Assembly: GCA_001897305.1 (NCBI GenBank)
Contig: MKSO01000001.1
Location: 540,001-572,000, forward strand
Length of the DNA: 32,000 nucleotides
Origin: Candidatus Saccharimonadota bacterium
GTDB taxonomy: Bacteria > Patescibacteriota > Saccharimonadia > Saccharimonadales > Saccharimonadaceae
Direction: 5' to 3'
The notes under the pieces are model-generated. The model saw only the letters and a list, made by a program, of their open reading frames with translations. It ran no database searches and had not been told where the DNA came from. Of this stretch, positions 5,916 to 30,948 are shown piece after piece. The translations under genes were made by a program, and so were the position numbers. Position 1 is the stretch's first letter. Each line of letters begins with the position of its first letter.

Positions 5916-5998
5916 ATACCAATTGCCTCATTTCTGTATACATTGTATATGAAAATTAGCACTCAGGTCAAGTGAGTGCTAATTTGTAAGAAGGTTTT

Positions 5999-7303: not shown

Positions 7304-7354
7304 TAGACTTAGTATAACAGAGGTCAAAAGGTGGGGCAAGTTTTGCCAAATGAA

Positions 7355-10511: not shown

Positions 10512-10773
10512 TTGGCCTCGAGCTAGTCAAAAAGCGCCTCACAGAAGCCTGGAAACGATTAAAGGCCCTTTTTGAGGTACCTTTTATTAGAAACCATAGG
10601 AGACTTGCTCGTTGCCCTGCATGAGGGTGGTTACAGTAAATCTCCTATGGTGCGCCTCATCGACTCTCAATGGCACCGCGTTCTACCTAGTATCACGACA
10701 ATGTACAACAAGTTAATCGACTTGGGCTTTACCTATTATAACGGAGAAGTCCATATTGTCGAACCGGAGGATA

Positions 10774-11227: not shown

Positions 11228-11443
11228 ATGACACAGTACGAAGAATACGAAATGACAGAAGCAGATATTGATAAAACCATCAATTATCTTAAGACTCTTG
11301 GCTACGAGGACGCTACACCAGAAGATGCAATCGCCTACCTTGAAAGGCTTCAGGCAAAAGTTCACGCCGCCGGACACGTTCTGAGCGATGAAGAGATGCA
11401 GGAACTCTACAACGAGTTCTCGTCAGATTACAAAAAGAACTAG
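11228..11443 (+). CDS. Hypothetical small acidic protein (71 aa)
   Basis: ATG at 11228 is preceded by AGGAG (11214-11218). The track start at 11222 is TTG. No family recognised. Confidence 0.55.
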   Translation: MTQYEEYEMTEADIDKTINYLKTLGYEDATPEDAIAYLERLQAKVHAAGHVLSDEEMQELYNEFSSDYKKN

Positions 11444-13929: not shown

Positions 13930-14483
13930 TAGAGTTCTCCGATCTTATCGTGGATGAAGTTATAGGAAGCCGCCGAGGATGCGGCAAATGTTCGAGTGGA
14001 TACTACATTGATATGCGGAGCGTTCATCTCTGATATCGTCCATTGTCCAGAAAGAGGGTCAACAAAGCTCACGTAGGCCACGTGACCGAGTTCACTGCCG
14101 CCGTCAGTCTGGAAGATAGCCCCGATGCTTGGTGTGTGATCAACGAGGTATCCATCGCGCCTTGCGTAGTCGTCCCACGTATTAGCGTTGCCCCAACTCG
14201 TCGGAATCGGATCGTCTGCCCAAAAGCGCATAGCGTATGACCACCATGTACAGTTACCCCATGCGTAGGTATTGCCCGGAACGTCCGGCCCCATGTAGAA
14301 GCCTTGCTCCTCAGCGGATTCGGCACTCGGTTGTTGAGAGAGGTAGGTCGTCACATCCCTGCCCATCGCAAAGACTGCTACCACTGGCATCGACAATACA
14401 AACACGAGAACACATAAGGCAATCAAAGCGTACTTGCGGAGGTTTCCGCTAAAAAATAGTGACGCGATGATTGCCGGGTTCAT
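13929..14483 (-). CDS. CHAP/NlpC-P60-type peptidoglycan hydrolase (VirB1 functional analogue)
   Basis: N-terminal TM helix (YALIALCVLVFVLSMPVVAVFAM), then a Cys context GNCTWWSY and a His context GHVAYV with CHAP-like spacing. Its ATG overlaps the upstream gene's stop (ATGA). Confidence 0.8.
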   Translation of the reverse strand: MNPAIIASLFFSGNLRKYALIALCVLVFVLSMPVVAVFAMGRDVTTYLSQQPSAESAEEQGFYMGPDVPGNTYAWGNCTWWSYAMRFWADDPIPTSWGNANTWDDYARRDGYLVDHTPSIGAIFQTDGGSELGHVAYVSFVDPLSGQWTISEMNAPHINVVSTRTFAASSAASYNFIHDKIGEL

Positions 14484-16213
14484 CCGTATAGCTCCGTCGG
14501 ATTGGTGGTAATGAGCGGATGTTCTTTCTCACTGGCGACGACCTTCACCGCCACGTGATTCTGATCGGCGATAATCAGGGCATCACCCCGTTCGCAGGTC
14601 AGCAGGAAGCTCTCCTCATATTCAGACAGGTTGAACTCACTCGCCACATTCTTAATCGTCGTGGTGTCTTGTCGCATTAAGATACGGAGTGCCGATTGCG
14701 AAGCGATGGCACGGCCATAATCAGAGTGCAGGAAGTCGTTGGCTTGCTGAGAGATGATGGACACGCCGAGGTAGTATTTACGGGCGCGGCGTACTAGTCC
14801 CGCTACGAAGCGAGCTGACTCCTCGTGTTCGAGCAGTAACCAGCCCTCGTCGATAATCAGTAGTCGCTTTTCCGGCTTGGCCTTGACCTGATTCTGGACA
14901 AAGTTAGAGATGATGAGCATCATAATCTGACGGAGCGATTCCGGCAGGTCTTTGATGTCGAAGATCACCAGACGGTTCGAGAGGTCGATGTTAGTTTGGC
15001 TATTGAAGACACTCGCCAGTGATCCTGAGATGTACTTTTCCAGCCGTTCACAGAGTTTCAACTGTCCGAGTTTGTTCAGTTCGGCGTACAGGTCTTCAAG
15101 AAGCGGTTGTTCTTTCTTGGCGTTTTTGTAGATTTTAAGAATCGCTTTGTCCACCGCTGCTTTCTCACGAGAGTTCAACCCCTCGGCCATCAGGCTGATC
15201 ACTTCGGTCAGGTCTTGGACGTGTTCGGACAGGTCGTCGATATTGTGAAATGTCGTCGCTAAGTCGAACGGGTTAATCTTCTGCTTGCTCTTGGCGCTGA
15301 GTTTGACGTAGGTGCCATTGACCGATTCGGTGAGGCGTTTATACTCACGTTCCGGGTCAATGACGATAACTTTTGTCCCCTGCATAAGCTGGCGGAGTAT
15401 CTCCACTTTGGTCGTGTAGCTCTTACCAGATCCCGACTGAGCAAACGTGATGGAGTTGGCGTTCGGCAGCCCGAAGCGATCCAAAATCACCAGTGAATTG
15501 TTGGACTTATTGACTCCATAAAGGATGCCCGATTCTTGAACGAGTTCTGAACTCATGAACGGAAAGGTCAGTGCCGCCGAGCTACTGTCTAGGTTTCGCT
15601 TCTGGGCTAACTGGTCTTCGGCTCGCGGGAGGATGCTTTGCAAGGCTTCAATCTGCTGGTAACGAGCGACTTTGCTATAAAACAGACGCGCCGACAAGGT
15701 GGCTTCTAATAGTTTGGTCGTCTTATTGAGTTCTTCCAGACTATCGGCTCGAAGCGTGACGTAGATACTCATCTGGAACAACTTTTCCTGCCCACGCTGG
15801 ATTTTGTCGCGTAGTTCAATGGCCGATTCGAGTGGGTCAGTGACTTCCGATCCCACAATCTTACCGGCTCGGATCATCGCCCGCTTGGTGCTTTCCAGCT
15901 CAGTGATTTTGCGGTGCAGTTTCGGAAGTGCCAGCAGTGCGCTGACTTCCGTCACGTGATAGCTGATGTCGGTATCGTGGTTGAAGTTAATTAGACTATC
16001 CAGCCAGCCAGAGTTCGCCACGAACGGATAACCGTTGATGTAGAGTGTCCGGAGGAACACGCCGTCTAAGTTGATGTAGTCCGGCGTTTCTTCTAAGCTG
16101 GCATAGCTCATCACATCGAGCATATCCTGTTCACCGAATACCAGCTTCAGCTCTTTGGCCTTTAATTCTCTGGCTTCACGACGTTTTCTCATTGTTGCTA
16201 TCGGGCTATTCAT
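14480..16213 (-). CDS. VirB4-family T4SS ATPase, C-terminal ATPase part
   Basis: 577 aa. Walker A FAQSGSGKSYTT and Walker B RLLIIDEGWLLL. ATG at 16213 is preceded by AAGGAGAA and overlaps the upstream stop (ATGA). Confidence 0.9.
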   Translation of the reverse strand: MNSPIATMRKRREARELKAKELKLVFGEQDMLDVMSYASLEETPDYINLDGVFLRTLYINGYPFVANSGWLDSLINFNHDTDISYHVTEVSALLALPKLHRKITELESTKRAMIRAGKIVGSEVTDPLESAIELRDKIQRGQEKLFQMSIYVTLRADSLEELNKTTKLLEATLSARLFYSKVARYQQIEALQSILPRAEDQLAQKRNLDSSSAALTFPFMSSELVQESGILYGVNKSNNSLVILDRFGLPNANSITFAQSGSGKSYTTKVEILRQLMQGTKVIVIDPEREYKRLTESVNGTYVKLSAKSKQKINPFDLATTFHNIDDLSEHVQDLTEVISLMAEGLNSREKAAVDKAILKIYKNAKKEQPLLEDLYAELNKLGQLKLCERLEKYISGSLASVFNSQTNIDLSNRLVIFDIKDLPESLRQIMMLIISNFVQNQVKAKPEKRLLIIDEGWLLLEHEESARFVAGLVRRARKYYLGVSIISQQANDFLHSDYGRAIASQSALRILMRQDTTTIKNVASEFNLSEYEESFLLTCERGDALIIADQNHVAVKVVASEKEHPLITTNPTELYG

Positions 16214-16848
16214 ACTTGTTCTCCTTTCTCTATAAGTGCCGTGTGTATGGCGGATAAGGCGCGGTCGGTTAATGGTTGAATCTTCGCGGCCGTTGGGTTG
16301 TAGAAACTGTAGAACAGGTCGAGGGTTTCCAGACTACTTAACTGCCGTGCGCTCATACCCATCCGGTTCATACCTTTCATAACGATATCGGCGGTCAGCG
16401 CCAATTGCTCTTTGATGAGATCAAAGTCCTTACTGGTACTTTCATACGGCACGATGATATAAAAGTGCCGCGTCAGGATCTTGTTGCTCTGAATCAGTGA
16501 GCGGATGAACTCGTCGTAGTTTTGAAGCTGGTCGCGGTAGATGCGTTCGGTCTCGTTTTCTAGCCGAGCCGACAGGTCTTCAAGATATTTATCCATGTCG
16601 ATTTCGCGGGTACGGATAAGAATCTGGAGCTTGGTGCCGACGGAGTTCAGAAAACTCTCGTAGGTATCAATGATCGCATCCTGCTCGTCTTCGCTTTTTA
16701 ACTCGAAGTTGAGCGAGGATACTTCCAGCACCAGCCGATAGCCGTTGTTCGGTAGGAGCAAGATACCGTCCCGCACTCCCCTGATACCGATTTGCTGACG
16801 GGTCGTGCCGGTGCGTTTCGTCTTATTCTGTTTCTGAGATACGGACAT
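16210..16848 (-). CDS. VirB4 N-terminal-domain-like protein (separate ORF)
   Basis: The sequence IRGVRDGILLLPNNGYRLVLEVSSLNFELKSEDEQDAIIDTYESFLNSVGTKLQILIRT resembles the N-terminal domain of Gram-positive VirB4/TrsE/PrgJ-type ATPases. ATG at 16848 has a GGAGG 5 nt upstream. The track start at 16875 is TTG. Confidence 0.7.
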   Translation of the reverse strand: MSVSQKQNKTKRTGTTRQQIGIRGVRDGILLLPNNGYRLVLEVSSLNFELKSEDEQDAIIDTYESFLNSVGTKLQILIRTREIDMDKYLEDLSARLENETERIYRDQLQNYDEFIRSLIQSNKILTRHFYIIVPYESTSKDFDLIKEQLALTADIVMKGMNRMGMSARQLSSLETLDLFYSFYNPTAAKIQPLTDRALSAIHTALIEKGEQV

Positions 16849-17323
16849 TGAGTCCTCCTTTCTTGGTGGTTTCAAATTTCAACCGCCTAATCGGATCGTC
16901 CAGCTTGGTGTACAGGTACGCCCTTTGGGATGGGTCGAGTTTCGGTAGTGAGATAGGTTTCTTTTCTTTGGTGACAACCGCTTCCGTCTGCCTCACGACT
17001 TCCGGATAGTCTTCCCGGTGGAGCGTGGTGTTCTTGGTAAATAGGTAAAGCCGTGGCCGAGCATGGAACCGAAGCAGGACGAACAGCCATTGCAGTACGA
17101 TTTTTCCTTTGATGCGGATGGACAGACTGAGTGCAATCAGTGACACGATACCGATGATAACCAGTTTGTAGAGCATATAGCCCATACTCGGTGGAAGTGC
17201 GGCATACAGGAGCGACCCGCCGAACACCGGAACACAGAACAAAGCGATCTGAGAGAGCGACAGGTTACCGGTAATCTTGTCTTCAACGGTCGTGACCTGT
17301 GCGGGAACAACGGTTACTTTCAT
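16823..17323 (-). CDS. Small T4SS membrane protein, PrgI/VirB3-like
   Basis: 166 aa with two adjacent TM helices after an N-terminal V(V)PAQVTTVEDKITGNLSLSQ segment. It sits immediately upstream of VirB4, and its ATG overlaps the VirB6-like stop (ATGA). Confidence 0.55.
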   Translation of the reverse strand: MKVTVVPAQVTTVEDKITGNLSLSQIALFCVPVFGGSLLYAALPPSMGYMLYKLVIIGIVSLIALSLSIRIKGKIVLQWLFVLLRFHARPRLYLFTKNTTLHREDYPEVVRQTEAVVTKEKKPISLPKLDPSQRAYLYTKLDDPIRRLKFETTKKGGLNVRISETE

Positions 17324-18843
17324 GACGTTTTTCCTTTCTTGGTAGTTTTCGTGGCAGTCTTAGCCTTTGCGACTGTCGTACTGGTAGTAACGGGTTTCAC
17401 GGCAGTTCTTGGCGTAGCGTTGGCCGCGCCGACTTTCGGTGCTTTGGTAGTCGTGCCAGTCGGAGTACGTTTCGTGGCTTTAGTGGAAGTTCCTCCAACT
17501 ATCGGAGCTTTGGCCGTAGATTTCGGCTGGGTATAGCTTCCGCCGACGCTTGAGCCCTTCATCCCAGACGAACGAGTCAGTCCGGTGCTGGATTTACTGT
17601 CGCTTTGAAGCGCCCATGAAGCAGCTGCCCGACCTTTGCCCCCTAAGTAACTGATACCATTCATGAATTGTGTACCTAGCTGGCGGGTATTCCTCGCGCC
17701 CAGACTCACGTAGCTAAACTGCATCATCAGCCCCTGAGTTTTAAGCAGTGCGATGATCGTTGCGAGGCCTACCGCCATGCTCATGAGAACATTCGGCACA
17801 TCGTTTCCGGAAGTGCTGGATAATCCGACGAATAGTGAACCCGCTAAGGTCAGGATGACCACGTGGACGAATAGGACAAAGATGGTGGTGAGGTAGGTTT
17901 TCATCGCGGTTTCCGAAAAGTCTCGAAACCCCGGCACCAACCAGACTAGAATCACCAGTGGCGAGAGTACCGCTCCGATGTAGAGCGCAACCAAACGTCC
18001 GACGTAGTAGATAAGCAGAATGAACGAGAAGATCAGAAAGACCAGCATGATGAGCAGTGCCGCCAGCCCTTGACCGCCCGATTCTCCAACCACTTTTGTT
18101 AAGGTGTCCCAGACCCCGGCCGCCCCGCCGACTTGCCCGACTGCTGTGATGAGCGCGTTGCTTGCGGCGATGAACCCGTCGATGATGAATATCGAGGAAT
18201 TGAGCAGCACGAATACCAGTAGGATTCTTGGGAGCAGTTGCTTGAACTCAATCTCGTCCAGTCCGAACGTACTGGCACTCATAACGTGGAAACCGATCAG
18301 CGCCACCACGACCACGAAGAATACGTCGGTAATACCAACCATTGCCAACCAGAAGTTAAAGACGGCGGAGTTATCGGTCATGAGCGGAGTTGATTTGGTA
18401 AAGAACTCTAGCGCATCCAGAAATGGCGTAGCGATAGCTTGGATGATGAAACTCAGCACCCCGACGATAGCGTTTATCAAGATGTCGATCAGCCCGTTGC
18501 TCGGTGCTTCCGGCGTGATATCGTTCAGGCTCGGCAAGGCGGCGCTACTCGGTGCTTGCGTATGCGTCATCGCCCCGTTGAGAATGGCGGTCAGTGTGGC
18601 CGCTCCAATGACGATCACCACCCCGATAAGAGCGTTCTTCAACACCCGCTTGGCTTGATCCAGCTTTTCCGGCCGTCCGGTAGAAGTCATGTAAAGGATT
18701 CCGCCGTAGACGATAAAGAAGACACAAGCTAGACCAGCCAGTGCGGTTAAAGTCGTCATGGTCGGATTAACCCAGTCGCGCATCGCTTGGATGGCACCGG
18801 AAGTATCAGCCATGAGCGACAAACTCATGGTGAGAAAGTTCAT
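17320..18843 (-). CDS. VirB6/TrbL-like polytopic T4SS membrane protein with an N-terminal pilin-like module and a Lys/Thr-rich tail
   Basis: 507 aa with many TM segments. The N-terminal ~90 aa are paralogous to the adjacent pilin. The C-terminal ~100 aa are low-complexity (T/K/S/G/A). Confidence 0.7.
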   Translation of the reverse strand: MNFLTMSLSLMADTSGAIQAMRDWVNPTMTTLTALAGLACVFFIVYGGILYMTSTGRPEKLDQAKRVLKNALIGVVIVIGAATLTAILNGAMTHTQAPSSAALPSLNDITPEAPSNGLIDILINAIVGVLSFIIQAIATPFLDALEFFTKSTPLMTDNSAVFNFWLAMVGITDVFFVVVVALIGFHVMSASTFGLDEIEFKQLLPRILLVFVLLNSSIFIIDGFIAASNALITAVGQVGGAAGVWDTLTKVVGESGGQGLAALLIMLVFLIFSFILLIYYVGRLVALYIGAVLSPLVILVWLVPGFRDFSETAMKTYLTTIFVLFVHVVILTLAGSLFVGLSSTSGNDVPNVLMSMAVGLATIIALLKTQGLMMQFSYVSLGARNTRQLGTQFMNGISYLGGKGRAAASWALQSDSKSSTGLTRSSGMKGSSVGGSYTQPKSTAKAPIVGGTSTKATKRTPTGTTTKAPKVGAANATPRTAVKPVTTSTTVAKAKTATKTTKKGKTS

Positions 18844-18853
18844 GAGTTACCCC

Positions 18854-19198
18854 TTAACTCCCGAACGCGTTGGTCGCAACCGATACGATGATATTTGAAA
18901 TGACGAACGCCGCGATAACGATTGCCAGCCCGATCAAAGACCAGAGCAGTGTCCGCTTCGCCCTATCCAGGTGTTCCGGATTGCCGGAGCTGGTGATGTA
19001 GCCGAAACCGCCTACTACAATGAAGCCGGTAGCGACCAATCCCGCCAGACCCGCGATGACACTAATGATGGTGCGGATGAAGTTCTCTACATTATCCACA
19101 CCTGCGACATCTGCGGCCAATGCAGGTTGAGTCAGTACGACGAGCGACCCGACGGCGACGACACTGGCGACTATTTTGATGTTTGTCAGTTTGTTCAT
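18854..19198 (-). CDS. T4SS pilin (VirB2/TrbC-like, CPR/Gram-positive T4SS-pilin type)
   Basis: Signal-like N-terminus ending in ALAADVAG, followed by two TM helices flanking GGFGYITSSGNPEHLDRAKRTL. ATG at 19198 has a GGAGG 5 nt upstream (the track start at 19210 lies further upstream). Confidence 0.75.
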   Translation of the reverse strand: MNKLTNIKIVASVVAVGSLVVLTQPALAADVAGVDNVENFIRTIISVIAGLAGLVATGFIVVGGFGYITSSGNPEHLDRAKRTLLWSLIGLAIVIAAFVISNIIVSVATNAFGS

Positions 19199-19399
19199 AC
19201 AACCTCCCACGTTGCTTATTTTGATAACCTCATTGCCACCGTGAGCAGGTACGAATCACACTTATACCTGATGCCACTAAATCATCCGGAATGTCGGAAA
19301 ACAAGAACGCACTTAAAAGTAAGTAACTTACTAAAAGGTTAGTTACTATCTTCGAGGATAGTACCCATTTAACAGATATGGAAATGCTCAAAAACAACA

Positions 19400-20424: not shown

Positions 20425-20437
20425 TACCTAAAAAGCA

Positions 20438-20464
20438 AGCCGCCCGCGACTGAACCGGGCGGCT
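20438..20464. terminator. Bidirectional stem-loop terminator
   Basis: 9-bp GC-rich stem agccgcccg / cgggcggct with a 9-nt loop. It is followed by tttgtac on the + strand and by tgcttttt on the minus strand. Confidence 0.55.
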
Positions 20465-20614
20465 TTGTACTATTCGTCTTACTTTATAAAGTTTAAGAAA
20501 GGACTTTTTAGTAGTAAGACTGGTTATGCAGGTCGGATACTATATGGCACTGACGCAAGATCCGTAGACCTTGCATATCACGCCCCGACAGGTGTCGATC
20601 TGTCGAACTAGTAT

Positions 20615-20739
20615 ACCGGGCAACTCGGAAACCGATGTTCGTGTTCGAGTTCGACGCAGAATTGTTCAAATTGAGCGTCAAGACCCCGGCATTGGAGCCA
20701 TTGTTCCAATTGCCGCCGCGGATGAACGCGCGAGAAGCT
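20615..20739 (-). repeat. DGR template repeat (TR)
   Basis: It is 125 nt, with 114/125 identity to 22392-22516. Ten of the 11 mismatches fall where this copy has T on the + strand (A on the minus strand). In the target reading frame it is rich in AAY codons. Confidence 0.9.
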
Positions 20740-20792: not shown

Positions 20793-21956
20793 ATGACGAT
20801 GTTAGATGCCACCGCTTTTGCTAAGATTGCTTCACTAGAGGCCTTAGCAAAAGCCCATAAAAAGGCGTTGATAGGAAAGCGCAACAGCCACTCGGCAACG
20901 GCCACCAACTTCCGCTTCATGAGTGATCTGCTTCAAATCCAGAGAGAATTGGTGTCCGGCTCGTACCGCCCGATGGATTATCGTCGCCGGATCATCCGTG
21001 AACCCAAAGTCCGGATGATTGAGGCTCCGGCCTTTCGGGACCGGATTGTTCACCACGCCATGCACGGCATTCTTAGCCCATTCTACGAACGTTCCTTTAT
21101 TCGTGATTCTTATGCATGTCGGCCAGATAAGGGAATCCACCGAGCAATGGCGAGGGTGCAACATTTCCTCAGAAGCGAACCGAACTTGTACGTCTGTAAA
21201 ATTGATATCTCCAAATACTACCCGTCGGTGAATCACGCTAAACTCCGTGAGCTGTTGCGTCGCAAGATAGATGATCCGAGGTTGCTCCGACTTTTGGATG
21301 TCATTATTGACAGTAGTGACAGCGGCGATGAACACGACTACCTATTCCCAACTGACTCCAACTACCATACAAAAGGTCGGCGCGGTATTCCTATCGGGAA
21401 CCTGACCTCCCAGCTCTTTGCCAATATTTATCTTCATGAGGCGGATATGTTTGCGAAGCAGTCGCTTCACGCCAAGTTCTACATCCGCTACATGGACGAC
21501 ATCCTGCTCTTTCATCAAGACAAAGCCGTTTTGCAAGAGTGGCAACGAAAGATCACGGCGTTTCTATACGATGAACTGTACTTGACGGTGAATCCGAGAA
21601 AAGTCCGCATCTATCCAAGTCGTCTGGGAGTCGACTTTGTCGGTTATATCATGTATCCGTATGGTAAACGGGTACGGGCATCGTCGCTCCGAAGATTCCG
21701 ACGGAAGTTCCACCGCAACCTCAAAGCCTACCATAAAGGCGCGGTCAGTGAACAACGGCTGGATGATATGGTGAACGCGTGGTCGGCTCATGTGAGGCAT
21801 GGGAGTGGTGAACCGCTCATTAAGCAAATCACCGAGGAGCTGGATTCCCACAAGTTCATTGCATTTGTCAGGAAGAAGCACCGCCAGAATTTACGGAGGC
21901 TCCGAAAGCCGACCCAATTGTCACTGCTCGACTTCGACGGCTCGGATAGTCGGTAG
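20793..21956 (+). CDS. DGR reverse transcriptase
   Basis: 387 aa. RT motifs include RMIEAP.FRDRIVHHA and YIRYMDDILLF (YxDD box). It also has the DGR-RT signature [I/L]GxxxSQ as IGNLTSQ. The TR is adjacent. Confidence 0.93.
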   Translation: MTMLDATAFAKIASLEALAKAHKKALIGKRNSHSATATNFRFMSDLLQIQRELVSGSYRPMDYRRRIIREPKVRMIEAPAFRDRIVHHAMHGILSPFYERSFIRDSYACRPDKGIHRAMARVQHFLRSEPNLYVCKIDISKYYPSVNHAKLRELLRRKIDDPRLLRLLDVIIDSSDSGDEHDYLFPTDSNYHTKGRRGIPIGNLTSQLFANIYLHEADMFAKQSLHAKFYIRYMDDILLFHQDKAVLQEWQRKITAFLYDELYLTVNPRKVRIYPSRLGVDFVGYIMYPYGKRVRASSLRRFRRKFHRNLKAYHKGAVSEQRLDDMVNAWSAHVRHGSGEPLIKQITEELDSHKFIAFVRKKHRQNLRRLRKPTQLSLLDFDGSDSR

Positions 21957-22307
21957 CCGTTTGTCGCGGGCTGTCTTGATCCACCCACCGGTCATCTTCC
22001 CTACTTCATCGATCCGCTTGGTGATGTGTCCGAGGCTTTTGGCACTAAGGAACTTCATCTCGAACCCAATCCGAAGTAGTCCTCGAAGTACTTCCAACTC
22101 CGTGTTCAGGTCATCCAGCTTCAAGAGTGTCTTCTCTGGATTTTTCAGATTGTTGGCTTGAATGATGAGCCGCAGACACGCGAGGGCGCTGGTTTCAATC
22201 TGTTGTCCCAGCACGAAGCGTTGTTTCTTCGGAAAGGTATTAACCTTATCGAAGATCCATTGCTGCACTTCGAGCATACGGGTGTAGATGATAAAATCCG
22301 GTTTCAT
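21921..22307 (-). CDS. Accessory variability determinant (Avd-like four-helix-bundle protein)
   Basis: 128 aa with a helical pattern: FPKKQRFVLGQQIETSALACLRLIIQAN...LDDLNTELEVLRGLLRIGFEMKFLS...GKMTGGW. This resembles the Avd / 23S-rRNA-IVS protein family. It lies directly downstream of the VR gene, and its 3' end overlaps the RT 3' end convergently by 36 nt. Confidence 0.8.
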   Translation of the reverse strand: MKPDFIIYTRMLEVQQWIFDKVNTFPKKQRFVLGQQIETSALACLRLIIQANNLKNPEKTLLKLDDLNTELEVLRGLLRIGFEMKFLSAKSLGHITKRIDEVGKMTGGWIKTARDKRLPTIRAVEVEQ

Positions 22308-22389: not shown

Positions 22390-23397
22390 TCACCGGGCAA
22401 CTCGGAAACCGATGTGCGCGTTCGAGTACGACGCAGAATTGCTCAAATAGAGCGCCAAGACCCCGGCATTGGAGCCATAGTTCCAAGGGCCGCCGCGGCG
22501 GAACGCGCGAGAAGCTGAGTCCGCATAGTTCGCGTAAATCTGCCCAACACCCTTACCAGCTCCCCAAGTAATACCAGAAAGACTGACGTTATTGACCGGG
22601 TTTGTCCAACCGTTTAAGGTTGCTGGCTTACTGACGTTTGCTAAGTTGCCGAGACTCAGTGAACCAAGCGTGTAGTCGCGCCAGTTGAATGCTGAGTCGC
22701 CAGAGACACCGACGTTGCTCATAGTGAGTGTTGGTGTACCAATGGCTTGCTGTGTCCATTCCCACACATTACCAGAGAAGTCCCAAATTGCGTCGCCAGA
22801 TGAAAGGTACAGTACGCGAGAGCTGTTATTGCCGGAGTTGGTTCCGATACCACCGGTCATGCCATTCAGGTTGTCGGTATCATCGTCCGAAGCCGCCAAC
22901 GCGCTTCCTGGGTTGTTGTTTACGTGACCCTGATAGATGATTCCGGAGTTCACGCTGCCACCAGACCAGTTCTGTTTCATCGAGAGTACATCAGCCGCAA
23001 TCGTCATCCATTCCGCCTCGGTCAGCAGGTGCCCGCCAGCATTGGTAGACTGCGTAATCGCATCCGTTTGTGTGATCGAGACCCACGGCGCACCGGAAGC
23101 CTGTGAGGTAGCCACGCCACTGACGTTCTTGGCTTCGTACTTCATGACACAGAACGGCGAGGTACCGAGTGTGGAATTGCCGTAGACAAATGAGTAACCA
23201 GCGGGACAATCGTCGATGCCGTTCTGGGCGCGGTAGACAGCAGCCTTTGTTTGGAGTTGCTTGATATCTGCGGTCAGGGCAGCCTTGTTGGCGTTCTGAG
23301 TGATGCCGGTGTACGCCACGATGGTAATCGCCGCAAGAATACCAATCACCACGATGACGATCAGGAGTTCGACGATAGTAAAACCGCGACGATTCAT
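22390..23397 (-). CDS. DGR target protein: type IV prepilin-like N-terminus plus FGE-sulfatase/C-type-lectin-like domain ending in the VR
   Basis: 335 aa. The N-terminus MNRRG|FTIVELLIVIVVIGILAAITIVAY is a class III signal (Gly-1, Phe+1, Glu+5). FGE/SUMF-type blocks are present: HLLTEAEWMTIA, GNVWEWTQ, and RGGPWNYG...GFRVAR at the C-terminus. Confidence 0.9.
   Translation of the reverse strand: MNRRGFTIVELLIVIVVIGILAAITIVAYTGITQNANKAALTADIKQLQTKAAVYRAQNGIDDCPAGYSFVYGNSTLGTSPFCVMKYEAKNVSGVATSQASGAPWVSITQTDAITQSTNAGGHLLTEAEWMTIAADVLSMKQNWSGGSVNSGIIYQGHVNNNPGSALAASDDDTDNLNGMTGGIGTNSGNNSSRVLYLSSGDAIWDFSGNVWEWTQQAIGTPTLTMSNVGVSGDSAFNWRDYTLGSLSLGNLANVSKPATLNGWTNPVNNVSLSGITWGAGKGVGQIYANYADSASRAFRRGGPWNYGSNAGVLALYLSNSASYSNAHIGFRVAR
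22392..22516 (-). repeat. DGR variable repeat (VR), last ~41 codons of the target gene
   Basis: It is the counterpart of the TR and ends 2 nt before the TGA stop. Codon changes TR to VR: ATC>CGC, AAT>CCT, AAT>TAT, ACG>GCG, AAT>TAT, AAC>AGC, AAC>TAC, ACG>GCG, AAC>CAC. Confidence 0.9.
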
Positions 23398-23434: not shown

Positions 23435-23458
23435 AGAGAGAGAGAGAGAGAGAGAGAG
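23435..23458. repeat. (AG)12 dinucleotide microsatellite ((CT)12 on the gene strand)
   Basis: Twelve perfect AG units counted directly. The tract lies 37 nt upstream of the target-gene ATG (23397), within its promoter or 5' leader. Confidence 0.95.
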
Positions 23459-23636
23459 CTTTACTTATTTCATTTTTATTGTTTAGTAAGTATTTCACTG
23501 TTTTGCCCGTACCCTTTCGAAAATCTGCGTCGACTAGCGTTGTTATTTAGTCATTACTCAAATTGTATCATAAGCAGTATTGAGCGCAACCCTTTGCTCC
23601 CAGCAAACCATAAGTTTTTACCGCGTCATCCAGGGG

Positions 23637-23671: not shown

Positions 23672-24853
23672 TTATGGCTTCTGGCGTTTCATCTGTTTGA
23701 CCAGCATTTGATGTATGGCATACGTGAGGGCATTGTCCTCGTATACGAACCCCTCGCGGTTGAACGGGCTTTCTGGTGGCTCCCCTGCCTCCACATGCTT
23801 TTCCCAAACAAGCTCGTCCGTATAGTCAGTAATGCCTAACGCCTGTTTGATAATCTTCTGCATCCCAATCCCAAAAACGAGCAGGGCAATATCAAGGTGT
23901 CTTTGCTTATCGAGGAAGTTGTAGTCATCGGACTTAATCTTGTCACCGTGAATAATTGCGCTTCTCAGTTCATAAAACCTATCAGCCCACATCACCTTGA
24001 TACTTTCATGTTCCCAAACAGCTGGTGCTCTACCGCGAGAACTTTTATAACGACGCTTCGGATCACTCGGCAGAACAAACATGCTATTCATTGTGTTCTT
24101 CAAGTGTTCCCTTTGTCGAGAGTCCGGAATATCAAACAGGGTTTCAAGTGCGCTAGACATCGACAAGACTCGTTGAGATTCTGGAATCTTATCATCATTA
24201 TAATAAGCCTGAACGACAACCTCGATAGCCTGTATGATGCGTCGATACAGTTTCTTGTTCTTCCTATAAAGGCGGGCTAATAGTCCCAAGGTATCATCGT
24301 CAATATTAAATGACATCGGTGACATCACCTGCTGTGGTCGCCGGAAGATCATATCACCCAGCTTGTAGCCCATATCATTCTTCTGGATGATGGACCCGCC
24401 TCGGATACCGAAGTGATCGTCTTGCGTACTGAAGCCCTGCCACACCATATCGAAGTTCTCCGACACAACCATTCGGTGACCTCGGTTTACGTCCGTCAGG
24501 ATTTTTAGGTTCCATACCAACGCACCAGCGAACAGGCGGAGCCTTGCCTCTCGTGCCAGTTTCCGTTCACTGTCGGTATATTCTCGAAAATCTATATCAC
24601 CAACACTGATAATGCCCATATCTGAAATTGCCTCATCGGCTAGTGTACCCATACCCTGAAAGACGTAGTGAACGTTGCTCCCCATGATTGTATCCAGCCT
24701 CGCAAGTACATCCGGATCGGTGATGTAGGCATTCTTCATCAAACCGTAGTTCCAAATCTTAACAGTAAGGTCTGGGAAGTTGACCTCATTCACATCTTTC
24801 ATATTTAGGTAGGGGATGTAGTTGACCTGCATTTCTAGAATCCTAACTGCCAT
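23672..24853 (-). CDS. Hypothetical protein B of an unknown two-gene cassette; C-terminal HEPN-like domain
   Basis: The track start at 24874 is GTG. ATGs at 24853 and 24832 are alternatives; 24832 lies 2 nt after the stop of the upstream ORF. The C-terminal helical region contains SSALETLF...ADRFYELRSAIIHGDK (R-x4-H at 23948-23965). No Walker motif. Confidence 0.75.
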   Translation of the reverse strand: MAVRILEMQVNYIPYLNMKDVNEVNFPDLTVKIWNYGLMKNAYITDPDVLARLDTIMGSNVHYVFQGMGTLADEAISDMGIISVGDIDFREYTDSERKLAREARLRLFAGALVWNLKILTDVNRGHRMVVSENFDMVWQGFSTQDDHFGIRGGSIIQKNDMGYKLGDMIFRRPQQVMSPMSFNIDDDTLGLLARLYRKNKKLYRRIIQAIEVVVQAYYNDDKIPESQRVLSMSSALETLFDIPDSRQREHLKNTMNSMFVLPSDPKRRYKSSRGRAPAVWEHESIKVMWADRFYELRSAIIHGDKIKSDDYNFLDKQRHLDIALLVFGIGMQKIIKQALGITDYTDELVWEKHVEAGEPPESPFNREGFVYEDNALTYAIHQMLVKQMKRQKP

Positions 24854-26370
24854 CGTATCGTCAGCCTGTTCCACTCCGAGAACGTGTCACTTGTTGGGTG
24901 ATTATCTTTTGGAGGGGGTGGCATGTTCGTCAAGTTAGCCGCCTGGACATGGCTCAGTTTCTCAACCGGTGTCGCTCGCATAAGATCATTGACTAGTATC
25001 ACTACCTCCTCGAATAGCTTGTCTACCAGCGTCGCTGGATTGACTTCGTTGAGATTAGCACCGAGGGGCTTCACTCCCCACGCGTCGCGTCCGCCGAGTG
25101 CGTCCATCGAAAGCAAGATATCCGCTTCGTCGTCTTTCGGCAGCCCGAGGATGGTTTCTGTCTTGTTGCCGCTCTGTTTGGTGATGCCTTTGATTGCTTC
25201 ACCGTGGATAGAATTTCGTAGCTTGGTCAGAACGGTAAGCCGATGAGCATTATCGCTCCCCTTTGCCACGGCCGCCGCAAGATTGGCATCCAGCTTCGCA
25301 ACGTCCTTTATCCAGTCTCGTTGCCATGCCGCATTATGTGCTTTGGCCGGATTCATACCGAGGACATAATGTGCCACCCTCGCACTAGCATCAATCGCTC
25401 CCATCAAGGTCATCAAGGTATTGTCGAACGTGCCGAGTACGTCATCATTGATGTCGTTGTTGGTCTTGGAGTTGATGCCGATATGAATCTGGTCCCGTAG
25501 TTCGAGCGATCGTTGCATCCGGCTCATCACCGCACTAGCCAAGTACATCAGCTTATCGTCTTTCGTTCCGGACGAGTGGTGGACGCAAGCCGAAAACCAA
25601 CGCCACGTTTCGGGTACTAACTCGCGCATCCCAACCCAATAGAACATTCCCCTATTTAAATGGTAGCGGAATTTCTTTTGACCAGTCGGAATAATGAACT
25701 CACGTTGCGCCCGCAAATATAAAGAAACAGCCGAGATCGCATCGTCTGGTTGGCAAATAGTTATTGCCCGACCAGCTGCAATACGCCGTGACGGTGCGTA
25801 GAGATAAGGGCGGGTGGTGATATAGATATCAGCATCAATACAGTCGTCGGCGACTTGGACGGCAATCGCATCGGCTTGTCTTTTATCGGCCGCGTCATCA
25901 CCAGTGTAAGTCTTATCAGTAGCGTCGTCCCTTGCTGCAGTGTACAGGTCACCCATAACGCCAGAGTAAGATGCGTTCTTGTCGTCGAGTGCATAGGTCA
26001 CCGGACATAAACCGTTTGACTTTTGTGGGTATAGGACTGCATATCCCTCGTAGGTTGGTTCGATGTTCGGGTTGCCTGTTTCGATTGGCTCGACCGATGC
26101 CGGTGGAGTTTCGGTGTAGCGGTATAGTTCAATCAAGTCGTTATAGAGGAGGCTTCTCAGCAACAGCCCTTTCGTCGGAGTGCCTCGCATGTCCGAAGTG
26201 GTCGATTCATCGAACAGCTCACTATCGATCATGACGCGAAGTTTGCGGAATGGAGCGCGGCGGTCGAACACACTGTCTGTTCTATCTGGCGATTCTGGCC
26301 ATACAGCATTACGCCACATGGCGTTCTTGGCCGTCTTGTTAAACTGCGTCACTCCCATAATATCTTCCAT
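24835..26370 (-). CDS. Hypothetical protein A of an unknown two-gene cassette; HEPN-like R-x3-H motifs
   Basis: 511 aa, ATG at 26370. The C-terminal half is helical and carries LELRDQIHIG and TKLRNSIHGEA (25204-25218). No NTPase or other motif that I recognise. Confidence 0.8.
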   Translation of the reverse strand: MEDIMGVTQFNKTAKNAMWRNAVWPESPDRTDSVFDRRAPFRKLRVMIDSELFDESTTSDMRGTPTKGLLLRSLLYNDLIELYRYTETPPASVEPIETGNPNIEPTYEGYAVLYPQKSNGLCPVTYALDDKNASYSGVMGDLYTAARDDATDKTYTGDDAADKRQADAIAVQVADDCIDADIYITTRPYLYAPSRRIAAGRAITICQPDDAISAVSLYLRAQREFIIPTGQKKFRYHLNRGMFYWVGMRELVPETWRWFSACVHHSSGTKDDKLMYLASAVMSRMQRSLELRDQIHIGINSKTNNDINDDVLGTFDNTLMTLMGAIDASARVAHYVLGMNPAKAHNAAWQRDWIKDVAKLDANLAAAVAKGSDNAHRLTVLTKLRNSIHGEAIKGITKQSGNKTETILGLPKDDEADILLSMDALGGRDAWGVKPLGANLNEVNPATLVDKLFEEVVILVNDLMRATPVEKLSHVQAANLTNMPPPPKDNHPTSDTFSEWNRLTIRWQLGF

Positions 26371-27391: not shown

Positions 27392-27553
27392 ATGGACAGG
27401 AAGAAACGCAACATCATCGCGACGGTTATTATCCTCAGCAGTGTTCTCGTGCTTGCGGCCGGTGCGGTTGGCGTATTCTTTCTGTGGTCTCACGGCTGTG
27501 ACGGAGAGTTGATCTTCGGCTGGAAAGCCTACTACGTGACTGGCTGTCGTTAG
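27392..27553 (+). CDS. Possible 53-aa single-TM peptide
   Basis: MDRKKRNIIATVIILSSVLVLAAGAVGVFFLW... has a basic N-terminus followed by one TM helix. A perfect TATAAT (27380-27385) ends 6 nt before the ATG, which allows a leaderless transcript. Support is weak. Confidence 0.3.
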   Translation: MDRKKRNIIATVIILSSVLVLAAGAVGVFFLWSHGCDGELIFGWKAYYVTGCR

Positions 27554-28368
27554 TCTATTTCTTGAAGGCTCAGGAGGTCATCTGGTTCATCCAGCGTCGT
27601 CCAGATCTTGGCTTCATCGTCCATGTTTTCCAATGCTTTTTGCGTGGTGGTGTAGATTTCCGACTCCTCGTCCGGCTCCATCTTGTTGATGACCCCGCTC
27701 GTGATCCGGCGGATGAGGCGTTCAGTTCTTACGCTTTCGGCCACGAACAGTAGCGTCGGGAGTTCTGCGCCCGTTTCATCCCAGCCGCCTTTATCGAAGA
27801 AGTCGATATAGGCGGACACTCTCCGAAATACCCCCTGCCGATCCAAACTGTCCGGAATGACATCGAGGAAGAACCGCTTGGTGTTGCCGCCAAAAGAGAG
27901 TGAGAGAAATACGTCCGGCGGATTGTCCGGAAAGTATGAGAATTGCGACATATCACGGCGGAGGTAGGCCTTTAATTCTTGGTAGTGACGCTTCAGGCGT
28001 AAGACCACCGAGAAGACCTGTAAGCAGTGGATGACGGTGGAGTTTAAGAGGGATTTGTCGCGGTAGCTGGACTTTATCACTTTCTCGGTGATGTAGCTAT
28101 GATTGTCCAACCCCGCTAGAAAGCGGAGTCCTTTGGGAGTCAGGAAATAGGCGGCAGGTTGCCCCAAGAGCTTCTGGCGATTATCCTGCCGTTTATCAAT
28201 CAAGCCCTGTTTAATTAACACTTCCAATTTTTCAAATAGTCCAGAACCAGCTTTAACACTAAGCACCTCTGCTATTAATTGACGACTACCAAACCTATAT
28301 TTATAGATTACTTCTAAGATGTCTATCTGACCTTGTTTTACCCTAGACCGACCGTCTGGTTTACTCAT
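27550..28368 (-). CDS. Replication-relaxation-family-like wHTH protein (possible relaxase surrogate)
   Basis: 272 aa. The N-terminal QIDILEVIYKYRFGSRQLIAEVL....LEVLIKQGLIDKR......GQPAAYFLTPKGLRFL fits the wHTH pattern of the Replic_Relax family. The function call is from memory of that family only. Confidence 0.55.
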   Translation of the reverse strand: MSKPDGRSRVKQGQIDILEVIYKYRFGSRQLIAEVLSVKAGSGLFEKLEVLIKQGLIDKRQDNRQKLLGQPAAYFLTPKGLRFLAGLDNHSYITEKVIKSSYRDKSLLNSTVIHCLQVFSVVLRLKRHYQELKAYLRRDMSQFSYFPDNPPDVFLSLSFGGNTKRFFLDVIPDSLDRQGVFRRVSAYIDFFDKGGWDETGAELPTLLFVAESVRTERLIRRITSGVINKMEPDEESEIYTTTQKALENMDDEAKIWTTLDEPDDLLSLQEID

Positions 28369-29010: not shown

Positions 29011-29190
29011 TATGTCACGACCAAAAGGCAGTAAGAATGTTAATCCACCAGCCGTACCAGACACGGTGAATTTCACGACCGAAGAACGCCTGACTTTTAT
29101 TGCTACCCTCATCGTCGAACGCATTATTGAAGATATAAAAAACGAACAACCACTCTTAAAAAAGATAGGACAAGGTGATGCAACCAACTA
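29011..29190 (+). CDS. Hypothetical 59-aa protein immediately upstream of the recombinase
   Basis: ATG at 29011 is preceded by GGAGGG. The N-terminus is basic (SRPKGSKN). Its 3' end overlaps the recombinase start. Confidence 0.5.
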
Positions 29191-30908
29191 ACGGACAGAC
29201 GCTCCGTACACTACTCGCCGTCCGTGTTTCAACGGTCGGACAAGGTATTGATGGCGACTCGCCGGAAGCTCAGATCGAGCAAGGCGAACGCTACGCGCCG
29301 CTTCACAATATGCGGATCGTGATGACACTCCAATATCTTGAGTCTGCATCCAAAGAACAGCAACCGATGCAGGAGGTTATTAACTACTGCAAGCGTCATA
29401 AGGGCGAGATCGATGTCGTCCTTATTAAATCAATTGACCGCTTCACCCGTGCCGGTTCGACCGTCTACGACCAGCTCAAAGCCCAGCTTGAACCGCTCGG
29501 CGTGACGCTTGTCGATATGTACGGTATTATTAGCACTCAAAAAGTGAACACGCTTGAACACCTCGGCCAAGAATATAAATGGAGTGTCTACTCCCCTACT
29601 CGTAAAACAGAGCTTCTAGAGGCAGAACGTGCCAAAGATGAGGTGCGTGATATCTTGAGCCGTATGATCGGCTCAGAAATCCGTTATACGCAACTCGGCT
29701 ATTGGTCGCGTGGCGCTCGGTTCGGCTATAAGACCGAGAAGATAGAAACCGTCAACGGTAAACGAGCAATTCTTGTACCAGACGGGGATAAGGCCGACAT
29801 TATCCGTATGATGTTTGAAGAACGTGCGGCGGCCGTCTTAAATGACCACGAGATTGCCGAAAAGATGAATGATATGGGATTTGAAACCCCTATTAAAATC
29901 GTACGTGACAAACGGGATAGAACTCGGATCGTCAGCAGGACTGGCGGGAAGAAGATAACCGCCAAGCTACTACGAACATATGTCAAACAAACAATCTATG
30001 CCGGTGTAAATACTGAGAAATGGACAGGCGGCGTGCCAGTGAAGTGTAAGTTCGATGGCCTCGTTTCGATGGAATTATTCAACAAAGCCAATCGAGGCAA
30101 AGTAACGCTCCGTAACAATCCTGACGATATGGATCACCCAATCGTTGAATACGCTAAGAAAGATGAGCGGTTTGTTAAGAAGAATCACCAGAACCCCGAC
30201 TACCCATACAAAAAAGTAGTCACCTGTCCACATTGTCGCAGACCGCTTCTTGGAAGTGCCTCACGGGGCAGACTAGGTAAATACTACGCGGCTTATCACT
30301 GTAGCAATCACGGGCACCACTTCCGCGTACGCAAGGATGAGTTTGAGGGTACAATCGATACGTTCATAAAAACGGTCACAATGCGTCCTGAGCGCGTTGA
30401 GGAGCTGATGCAAGCCGTTATGACCGTCTATGAGCAACGGCAAGGTCAGAAAGTGAAAGCCGAGGAACTAGTTGATAAACGACGCTCCGAGCTTGAAGCG
30501 GAAATCAAAGTCATCGTAGACAAGATGAAGCTGATCAGCTCGGAAACCGCCATTAAATACCTAGAGGAGGACTTATTAAAGCTAGAACGAGAGATTAGCA
30601 ATCTAGACAACCAGAAACAGCAAGAAGCAGCCAAAGATACGGTCGATGTTCCAACGATGTTGACATACGTCAAATACTTTATGGAACACATCAAAGAGCT
30701 ACTCGTTGACCACTGTAATCCAATCAAAAAAGCGCAGTATTTCGGCGTATTATTCGATGAGGTTGCAACTTACGAGGAAATAAAAGCTGGCACCGCTGAA
30801 ATAGAAAAAATCCCAGGGGTGAACGAGCTATTTAAGCTTGCAAACTCCAAGGAAGTTTCATTGGTGCGGATAAGAGGACTTGAACCTCCACGCCCTTGCG
30901 GGCACTAG
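29178..30908 (+). CDS. Large serine recombinase (integrase of the element)
   Basis: Resolvase-type N-terminus LLAVRVSTVGQ (putative Ser nucleophile) and VLIKSIDRFTRAG. It has a recombinase domain, a Cys-rich zinc ribbon (CPHCRRPLLGS...YYAAYHCSNHGH) and a long coiled coil. The track start at 29175 is GTG; the ATG is at 29178. Confidence 0.9.
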   Translation: MQPTNGQTLRTLLAVRVSTVGQGIDGDSPEAQIEQGERYAPLHNMRIVMTLQYLESASKEQQPMQEVINYCKRHKGEIDVVLIKSIDRFTRAGSTVYDQLKAQLEPLGVTLVDMYGIISTQKVNTLEHLGQEYKWSVYSPTRKTELLEAERAKDEVRDILSRMIGSEIRYTQLGYWSRGARFGYKTEKIETVNGKRAILVPDGDKADIIRMMFEERAAAVLNDHEIAEKMNDMGFETPIKIVRDKRDRTRIVSRTGGKKITAKLLRTYVKQTIYAGVNTEKWTGGVPVKCKFDGLVSMELFNKANRGKVTLRNNPDDMDHPIVEYAKKDERFVKKNHQNPDYPYKKVVTCPHCRRPLLGSASRGRLGKYYAAYHCSNHGHHFRVRKDEFEGTIDTFIKTVTMRPERVEELMQAVMTVYEQRQGQKVKAEELVDKRRSELEAEIKVIVDKMKLISSETAIKYLEEDLLKLEREISNLDNQKQQEAAKDTVDVPTMLTYVKYFMEHIKELLVDHCNPIKKAQYFGVLFDEVATYEEIKAGTAEIEKIPGVNELFKLANSKEVSLVRIRGLEPPRPCGH

Positions 30909-30948
30909 CACCTGAAGCTAGCGCGTCTACCAATTCCGCCACATCCGC
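30862..30948 (-). tRNA. tRNA-Leu (anticodon CAG), class II with long variable arm, CCA encoded
   Basis: Hand-folded cloverleaf. Acceptor GCGGATG/TATCCGC; anticodon stem CTAGC/GCTAG with loop TTCAGGT; variable arm GCCC-GCAA-GGGC; T-loop GGTTCAAGTCC; 3' ACCA. Confidence 0.9.

Follow-up and report, generated by a model that had tools for sequence, protein, structure and literature searches.

A candidate pilus-displayed lectin rewritten by a diversity-generating retroelement in Candidatus Saccharibacteria bacterium 47-87

The 32,000-nt stretch of DNA analyzed here (contig MKSO01000001.1, positions 540,001–572,000; hereafter, the window) carries a diversity-generating retroelement (DGR) whose target gene (22390–23397, minus strand) encodes a 335-amino-acid (aa) prepilin-like protein with a C-type-lectin-fold (CLec) domain, as recognized from the translated open reading frame (ORF) and from Pfam matches to N_methyl and to FGE-sulfatase (FGE, formylglycine-generating enzyme). 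On balance, we consider it probable that this protein is a modular, DGR-programmable type IV pilus adhesin, the binding face of which is rewritten by the adjacent retroelement. The gene starts at an ATG with a GAGG Shine-Dalgarno sequence 10 nt upstream, and the exact protein is on record as OJU97096.1 (BGO18_02875) from Candidatus Saccharibacteria bacterium 47-87, its cluster representative carrying the name ‘type II secretion system protein’. A first reading of the DNA without database searches (the original prediction) had supposed a small-genome bacterium that is episymbiotic or surface-attached, and the source organism is of the episymbiont type.

Target protein

The N-terminus of the target (aa 1–26; 23320–23397, minus strand) has the form of a class III (prepilin) signal joined to a hydrophobic α1N segment, in which the leader MNRRG precedes FTIVELL, with cleavage predicted between G5 and F6, Glu at +5, and Gly at +14. 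Matches above the respective cut-offs were obtained for both Pfam N_methyl (PF07963; aa 2–25; 29.4 bits, cut-off 21.2) and NCBIfam TIGR02532 (IV_pilin_GFxxxE, the prepilin-type cleavage/methylation domain; aa 3–26; 29.4 bits, cut-off 16.3), bearing out the class III signal (Gly −1, Phe +1, Glu +5) of the original prediction. The motifs quoted there were all located in the translation (MNRRG followed by FTIVELLIVIVVIGILAAI, aa 1–24; HLLTEAEWMT, aa 123–132; GNVWEWTQ, aa 209–216; RGGPW...GFRVAR, aa 301–335). Of 108 homologs, at least 90% keep the Phe, Glu +5, and the hydrophobic stretch. Further, the N-terminal sequence GFTIVELLIVIVVIGILAAITI is the standard Saccharibacteria pilin N-terminus, common to dozens of ordinary pilins of 150–200 aa that occur in clusters of up to nine genes (loci L082, L013, L063, and L072).

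An AlphaFold2 (AF2) model of the target, based on an alignment of 108 sequences (mean predicted local distance difference test score, 96; predicted template modeling score, 0.91), consists of a helix followed by a mixed α/β domain. The predicted helix, assigned with DSSP, is a continuous α1 of 51 residues (aa 8–58; 23224–23376, minus strand). The family profile matched solved pilins and pseudopilins over ~55–60 residues (profile positions ~19–73), extending beyond the 25-residue motif, with matches to geopilin (E 2.4e-12), Thermus PilA4/PilA5, PilE, PAK pilin, PpdD, and GspG (structures 9egp, 7tgg, 6xxd, 8qqj, 2hi2, 1oqw, and 5wda; E 2.4e-12 to 7e-5). A structure with a pilin α1 helix was what the original prediction had led one to expect, and both the AF2 helix and the profile matches are in keeping with it.

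The FGE-sulfatase/C-type-lectin-fold domain (aa ~62–335; 22393–23214, minus strand) directly follows α1. The Pfam FGE-sulfatase match covers aa 95–220 (32.2 bits, cut-off 23.3), and the top Foldseek match of the AF2 model was to TaqVP, a DGR variable protein of Thermus (E 1.9e-9), with formylglycine-generating enzymes and Mtd of a Bordetella phage ranked next. The model also matched phage tail-fibre CLec domains in the Foldseek viral library, and TaqVP was matched by the sequence family profile as well (E 7e-5). Pfam, AF2, and Foldseek (TaqVP, FGE, and Mtd) thus concur on the C-terminal FGE-sulfatase/C-type-lectin-like domain that had been read from the motifs. The N-terminal hairpins of the FGE fold have their counterpart in the segment GYSFVYGNS...FCVMKYEAK, and the strands at residues 68–97 belong to them. 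Among the 108 homologs, Cys64 is invariant and Cys83 nearly so, which fits the enrichment of disulfide-forming enzymes reported for pilins of the candidate phyla radiation (CPR; PMC6744442).

Because the CLec domain starts directly after the helix, there is no separate pilin β-sheet head; as modeled, the CLec domain stands in the place of the usual head and is not appended to one. No pilin structure matched the target past α1, either with the family profile or with Foldseek. Lacking the β-sheet head, the protein is therefore classed among pilin-like, modular proteins and not among canonical pilins.

DGR cassette and natural alleles

The variable region (VR; 22392–22516, minus strand) comprises the last 41 codons of the target, 14 of which have an adenine in the template repeat (TR; 20615–20739, minus strand), which encodes ...IRGGNWNNGSNAGVLTLNLNNSASNSNTNIGFRVAR. 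The two repeats, identified by pairing with one another, have the same orientation and are 91% identical over 125 nt, in agreement with the ~41 terminal codons to which the VR had originally been assigned. Within the homologous stretch, 10 of the 11 mismatches fall at TR adenines; the remaining one (T>G) sits in codon 300 and was seen in all eight loci read as DNA. The homology stops at ...GCCCGGT, after which there is a 1-nt offset, and an 18-mer common to the 3′ ends of the TR and VR occurs exactly twice in the window (0.05 occurrences expected). The TR is made up mostly of AAY codons, and ~7e14 protein variants are possible at the 14 codons without the introduction of stop codons. The VR scaffold RGG.W..AGV..L.L..GFRVAR is retained in all homologs.

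The reverse transcriptase (RT; 20793–21956, plus strand; RVT_1, 79.5 bits) has IGNLTSQ and YMDD motifs in its translation, and the Avd accessory protein (21921–22307, minus strand) matched both PF22296 (bAvd, 85.7 bits) and NF033474 (DivGenRetAVD, 88.1 bits; equivalog cut-off 80). The 3′ ends of the avd and RT genes overlap by 36 nt, and the RT is encoded on the other strand from the target, avd, and TR. An RT of opposite orientation is an unusual cassette architecture; the TR begins 54 nt upstream of the RT start codon and points away from the RT. The inverted layout (target–avd–(RT)–TR) recurs in at least nine other loci (L009, L015, L037, L081, L102, L117, L122, L140, and L144), and it follows from this layout that the TR RNA needs either its own promoter, in or next to the 5′ end of the RT gene, or read-through antisense to the RT.

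Directly 3′ of the TR is a conserved structured RNA of ~180 nt (20433–20614, minus strand), a candidate spacer or priming element found from an alignment of four DGRs with RNAalifold. It is non-coding, folds into three helices (14 of the 33 RNAalifold pairs have compensatory changes), is closed by a terminator-like hairpin (20435–20451), and matched no Rfam family. This element is probably the priming/spacer RNA of the DGR lineage and may be the counterpart of the Bordetella phage DGR spacer RNA that primes cDNA synthesis, in which case its transcription would not depend on the RT mRNA.

Natural sequence variation follows the adenines of the TR. Nine proteins from the same cluster that are identical over residues 1–299 bear nine different VRs, and among 16 natural sequences all 14 of the TR-adenine codons vary, while the adenine-free codons are almost invariant. 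When compared as DNA with the window gene, alleles P0001 and P0123 had 14 and 18 nt differences, respectively, every one of them at a position that is an adenine in the TR; the remaining 882 nt of the gene and 1,900 nt downstream (avd, RT, and TR) were identical. The TR was likewise invariant (0 differences) in loci bearing other VR alleles. One locus with 97% identity (L093) was left out of the allele analysis due to a frameshift near nt 836. As the alleles differ only at TR adenines and are identical elsewhere, mutagenic retrohoming operates in the wild, and the DGR is active in nature.

Homologs and their neighborhoods

A protein search returned >4,600 significant relatives, and the best 120 of these were mostly Saccharibacteria proteins of 320–430 aa that combine N_methyl and FGE-sulfatase. 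Neighborhoods were compared using a set of 150 loci from scans of species-representative genomes and JGI metagenomes. Besides the window, at least eight loci unite a pilin N-terminus, a CLec head, and an adjacent avd/RT (L009, L102, L106, L107, L117, L122, L140, and L144). The pilin-CLec genes often occur in tandem with pilins that have other lectin heads, including ConA-like (L013), Fib_succ_major (L018), and β-propeller (L025) domains, and T2SSG-like small pilins stand beside them in L013 and L014; these tandem loci resemble the multi-pilin loci and host-binding, lectin-like minor pilins of TM7x (PMC11623550). Many pilin-CLec genes have no RT in the flank covered. Their VR scaffold is kept, with differences mainly at adenine-templated positions, and these genes may be targeted by a remote DGR.

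Homologs with 58–68% identity were found in high-GC (0.57–0.65) mobile islands of Microbacterium and Leucobacter, both Microbacteriaceae (L006, 10001–11074; L007, 10001–11035 and 13451–14635; L010, 310–1338; and L024), with no RT in the neighborhood of these genes. In a rough neighbor-joining tree, the Microbacteriaceae homologs interleave with two island-borne Saccharibacteria proteins. This pattern suggests cross-phylum exchange of pilin-CLec genes between episymbionts and a host family; Leucobacter is a documented host of Saccharibacteria (PMC9894109). Locus L007 comes from the same KANT15 bioreactor study.

Mobile island

The DGR cassette is located within an island of ~20.2 kb of the integrative conjugative type (10648–30868), with TGGTGCG at both ends. 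The left boundary emerged from the comparison of two assemblies that share the island (L090 and L091), which are 100% identical to the right of window position 10648 and unrelated to the left of it; the 7-mer TGGTGCG at this junction (10648–10654) equals the 3′ end of a tRNA-Leu gene (30862–30868). No exact repeat of 12 nt or longer was found at the island ends. The breakpoint together with the shared 7-mer makes the cassette the cargo of a discrete integrative conjugative-type element, and the boundaries and gene content are, at the level of sequence, those of an integrative conjugative element (ICE).

Conjugation-type type IV secretion genes (11440–19210, minus strand; Pfam and NCBIfam) form a Gram-positive-style set consisting of VirD4-like, CHAP hydrolase, VirB4-like, TraC/TrsD-like, PrgI, VirB6/TrbL, and VirB2-type pilin genes. 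The remainder of the island encodes an HxlR protein, an HTH_17 excisionase-like protein, the DGR cassette, two uncharacterized ORFs, a DUF3768 protein, a relaxase-like Replic_Relax protein (27550–28368, minus strand; PF13814, 33.5 bits), and, at the right end, a large serine recombinase of 576 aa (29178–30908, plus strand; Resolvase and Zn_ribbon_recom). The 3′ end of the recombinase gene overlaps the tRNA-Leu(CAG) gene that is the integration site (30862–30948, minus strand; Rfam and ARAGORN). The same backbone occurs together with a DGR in L009, L037, and partly in L144, and the L037 island has the same recombinase, relaxase-like gene, DUF3768, avd, inverted RT, and type IV secretion genes.

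Leader of the target gene

A (CT)12 microsatellite (23435–23458, minus strand) is present in the 5′ leader of the target, 37 nt upstream of the ATG. The tract has 12 units in the window and in seven other loci (L001, L004, L093, L165, L166, L168, and L170), 13 units in three (L002, L003, and L167), and 14, 17, and 18 units in L169, L171, and L172, respectively, with flanks that are otherwise identical or near-identical; all five lengths (12, 13, 14, 17, and 18) occur among loci otherwise identical over 2.8 kb. The 72%-identical locus L009 has (CT)16. Length variation of this kind suggests a slipped-strand contingency locus in addition to the DGR, and pairing of the CU run with the GAGG Shine-Dalgarno sequence can be put forward as speculation. 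Further upstream, a promoter-like element (TTGCGC-N17-(TG)ATACAAT; 23562–23589, minus strand) was read by eye and is conserved in L009; a consensus scanner missed it.

Discussion

If the target acts as a pilus adhesin, a prepilin peptidase would cleave the protein after Gly5 and methylate the Phe, and the α1N helix would lead to loading by the Saccharibacteria type IV pilus machinery. Given a bulky head of 275 aa and no normal pilin sheet, the protein would most likely be a tip or minor subunit of low abundance, and a position at the pilus tip has been proposed for modular pilins in general (PMC8179133). The variable face would bind surface glycans or proteins of actinobacterial host cells, such that new VR alleles would change the hosts or strains that are grasped. 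The island would carry the module between lineages, and the (CT)n tract may make its expression vary, either on/off or in level. These conjectured steps draw support from the homologs that reside in pilin operons and from published work: nearly all Saccharibacteria have type IV pili (PMC11623550), conserved type IV pilus clusters occur in every TM7 genome analyzed (PMC9894109), PilD is widespread in the CPR (PMC6744442), and TM7x encodes PilD/B/C/T/M/N/O and uses lectin-like minor pilins to drive host binding (PMC11623550).

Four observations weigh against a programmable pilus adhesin. No pilus machinery or other type IV pilin gene was found in the window or in the ~9–10 kb past either end, where the left side (~9 kb) holds rpoC, rpsL, rpsG, four uncharacterized ORFs, and fusA and the right side (~9 kb) holds genes for an FAD oxidase, RecG, TyrRS, and a PBP. 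The canonical pilin head, a four-stranded antiparallel β-sheet on α1C, is absent from the AF2 model, and packing into a fibre is therefore not guaranteed. The DGR target of the L037 island (5890–7338, 482 aa) has a related CLec domain on a different, non-pilin N-terminus; Pfam matched nothing in this N-terminus, which resembles a signal peptide or membrane anchor. It follows that the pilin module is dispensable for the cassette and the display module swappable. Finally, the VR allele of the window recurs unchanged in at least eight independent assemblies; VR turnover is therefore not rapid everywhere, and diversification may be infrequent or under strong selection.

The first three of these observations (a gene that is not beside pilus genes, a model without the β-sheet head, and a relative with a plain signal or anchor) would also be expected if the class III signal were only a membrane anchor or led into a short pseudopilus (type II secretion/Com-like, or an archaeal ‘bindosome’), with the lectin displayed at the surface and never on a long pilus. 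The sub-threshold NCBIfam matches of the N-terminus (GspG, GspH, PpdD, ComGC, and PilA) point the same way, being as good to the GspG, GspH, and ComGC pseudopilins as to PilA. We nonetheless judge this alternative unlikely, if the most serious of those considered, as the 51-residue α1 with its Glu +5 and Gly +14 is under selection in >100 homologs and exceeds the needs of an anchor, homologs lie inside pilin operons beside other lectin-headed pilins, and the large-headed minor pilins of TM7x work on real pili (PMC11623550). A different role, which is compatible with display on a pilus, would be that the variable pilin serves the island as an adhesin for mating-pair formation or recipient recognition by its own type IV secretion system, a role like that of the PilV adhesin that a shufflon switches in plasmid R64. 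Bacteroides ICEs also bear DGR-pilin modules (bioRxiv 10.1101/2024.11.15.621889), the cassette lies mid-way within a discrete conjugative-type island, the same backbone and DGR are found together in L009, L037, and L144, and the closest relatives outside the Saccharibacteria reside in actinobacterial mobile islands with VirD4-type genes. The island itself, however, encodes no type IV pilus assembly genes, and most pilin-CLec homologs are in chromosomal pilin clusters and not in islands, for which reasons a service to conjugation seems improbable.

Diversification could also serve evasion of pilus-specific phages, predators, or host defenses rather than the binding of new ligands. Pili are common phage receptors, and the dominance of one allele in many samples while others exist could reflect sweeps, but the variable positions are in the C-terminal VR segment of the CLec domain, which we take to be the ligand-binding site from work on Mtd, TvpA, and TaqVP, and the AAY-rich TR gives maximal chemical diversity without stop codons, as is typical of binding-site libraries; there is accordingly little to recommend evasion as the main role. 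Least credible of all is an enzyme of the SUMF1/EgtB/PvdO family, a reading we give almost no weight. NCBI gives some homologs the name ‘SUMF1/EgtB/PvdO family nonheme iron enzyme’ and there is the Pfam FGE-sulfatase match, yet the top structural match, TaqVP, belongs to the DGR variable proteins and an active site would be intolerant of 14 freely varying positions. The catalytic cysteines of human FGE lie in its GGS.xCxxxxC region, the equivalent of which here is the hypervariable, cysteine-free VR, and the enzyme name was rejected on this ground.

The closest parallel to a DGR-programmable pilus adhesin is found among the DGRs of Bacteroides (Macadangdang et al., bioRxiv 10.1101/2024.11.15.621889), in which a C-terminal CLec head on a pilus subunit is likewise rewritten, many of the cassettes are likewise on ICEs, and the proposed role is the retargeting of adhesion. 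The two systems differ in phylum (Bacteroidota as opposed to Saccharibacteria) and in assembly, as the Bacteroides type V pilins rely on strand exchange after cleavage by an Arg-protease and the target described here has a class III signal and an α1 helix. They differ also in the mobile element, a tyrosine-integrase ICE at tRNA-Lys in Bacteroides compared to a serine-recombinase island at tRNA-Leu with Gram-positive-type type IV secretion, and in the orientation of the RT, which here runs counter to the TR, avd, and target.

Modular type IV pilins such as Streptococcus sanguinis PilB (vWA) and PilC (lectin) resemble the target in joining the IPR012902 motif to a ligand-binding module (Raynaud et al. 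2021, PMC8179133). The combination IPR012902-IPR005532 (pilin and FGE-sulfatase) was already listed for eight proteins in Dataset S1 of that study, which makes no link to DGRs or hypervariation (PMC8179133). In S. sanguinis PilB, a complete small pilin fold comes before the extra module, whereas here only α1 precedes the CLec domain; of the features that mark modular pilins, the target thus has the pilin motif and the non-pilus domain and lacks the complete pilin module and the short loop. PilX1 and PilX2 of Nanosynbacter lyticus TM7x (Grossman et al. 2024, PMC11623550) share with the target the phylum and large lectin-like heads, which in PilX1 and PilX2 are implicated in binding of the actinobacterial host, but PilX1 has a jelly-roll and PilX2 a β-propeller in place of a CLec domain. 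Both are reportedly without a predicted PilD signal, and neither is a DGR target. DGRs go unmentioned in that paper (PMC11623550).

Among the DGR variable proteins, TaqVP (5VF4), Mtd (1YU0–4), TvpA, and AvpA have, like the target, a CLec fold and a C-terminal VR that ends in a GFR-type motif. To our knowledge, none of the four has a prepilin N-terminus; Mtd is the tip of a phage tail fibre and TvpA is a lipoprotein. Another parallel, the variation of a pilin-like adhesin by a mobile element, is the shufflon of plasmid R64 (IncI1), which diversifies the C-terminus of PilV, a type IV pilin-like adhesin of the thin pilus, and thereby the partner cells that are recognized. As in the target, it is the C-terminus that a mobile element varies; in R64 this takes place by site-specific DNA inversion among a few cassettes and the plasmid encodes its own type IVb pilus machinery, in contrast to the retroelement mutagenesis described here.

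DGRs are strikingly enriched in CPR bacteria, and in the main global DGR survey the CPR targets are usually without recognizable anchoring domains. One DGR survey has ‘GspG-type pilin’ among the rare domains that hold a VR (PMC11661182), the supplements of Roux 2021 contain no pilin or N_methyl term, and no papers that connect DGRs with type IV pilins were found, an earlier mention in Paul et al. 2017 (Nat Microbiol) being possible. CLec variable proteins of DGRs and modular type IV pilins are each already known, and a type IV pilin-like lectin rewritten by a DGR would be a new variant that combines them.

The locus joins the enrichment of DGRs in the CPR with host binding by pili and lectin-headed pilins in cultivated Saccharibacteria (PMC11623550, PMC9894109), and it suggests how tiny episymbionts could retarget their attachment to host bacteria. 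A class of CPR DGR targets that recurs and shows its route of display in the sequence would make the DGR as a host-range switch testable in co-cultures of TM7 with their hosts. The locus is also a candidate for the exchange of adhesins between episymbionts and host lineages, and α1 plus a CLec domain, with ~1e14 variants, constitutes a compact natural scaffold for display engineering. More speculatively, Saccharibacteria, and perhaps other CPR and DPANN lineages, may possess a two-layer, mobile, programmable adhesin, in which a DGR-rewritten lectin tip on a type IV pilus subunit switches the host, (CT)n tunes expression, a conjugative island moves the module, and relatives have crossed into the Microbacteriaceae. 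We regard this extended proposal as a possibility with the odds against it; if true, the host range of an episymbiont would be a horizontally transferable, retroelement-encoded trait, and the enrichment of DGRs in CPR/DPANN lineages would be explained.

Additional observations

A pilin-fused DGR target of a second kind was seen in a Saccharibacteria locus (L070, 2807–3766), where N_methyl is combined with Fib_succ_major (114 bits) and the gene adjoins avd and RT on the same strand. Related CLec domains are also found in the DGR targets of low-GC, DPANN-type archaeal loci (L029, 9554–10825; L047, 9659–11032). The targets begin with KQAISPVISVILLL... and KAISPLIATILLIVVAV..., respectively, which resemble archaeal class III signals; Pfam Pilin_N narrowly missed its cut-off of 25.2 in L029 (23.5 bits), and the signal in L047, where Pfam detected nothing, was judged by eye.

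Within the island, the VirB4-like function is seemingly split, as a 221-aa protein (16210–16875) that matches only the N-terminal part of CD1110/Mbov_0397-type VirB4 ATPases (and TrsD) overlaps the start of a 577-aa P-loop protein (14480–16213). Two overlapping ORFs on the minus strand (23672–24874, 400 aa; 24835–26370, 511 aa) lie directly upstream of the target; they have no match in Pfam, NCBIfam, or PADLOC and are absent from the related L009 island. In L091 (around 9880), the identical island adjoins different DNA with metal-resistance genes, and the last ~45 nt of this flank are homologous to the right end of the island itself, suggesting that tandem or related elements occupy the same site. 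To the left of the window (L089, 18780–22449), the four ORFs between rpsG (S7) and fusA (EF-G), of 240, 371, 229, and 333 aa and without Pfam matches, form an insertion that breaks the usually conserved str operon.

Two candidate pilus genes near homologs were set aside. A ‘PilM’ in L005 (Pfam PilM_2) has relatives named FtsA and was dropped as evidence as a cell-division gene. A PilB-type ATPase in L127 (T2SSE, 305 bits), 0.9 kb from a homolog, is an orphan that stays beside rplS with or without the pilin, so its link to the pilin is weak; when this ATPase was used as the query, a copy from the 47-87 genome was not among the best 120 matches. The surrounding locus is conserved in Saccharibacteria (L127, 3956–7690; L163/L164, 8305–11623) with the order DnaE, SpoU, a variable slot, a TylF-like methyltransferase, the orphan T2SSE ATPase, and rplS, and the variable slot is occupied by the pilin-CLec gene in L127 and by two small ORFs in L163/L164.

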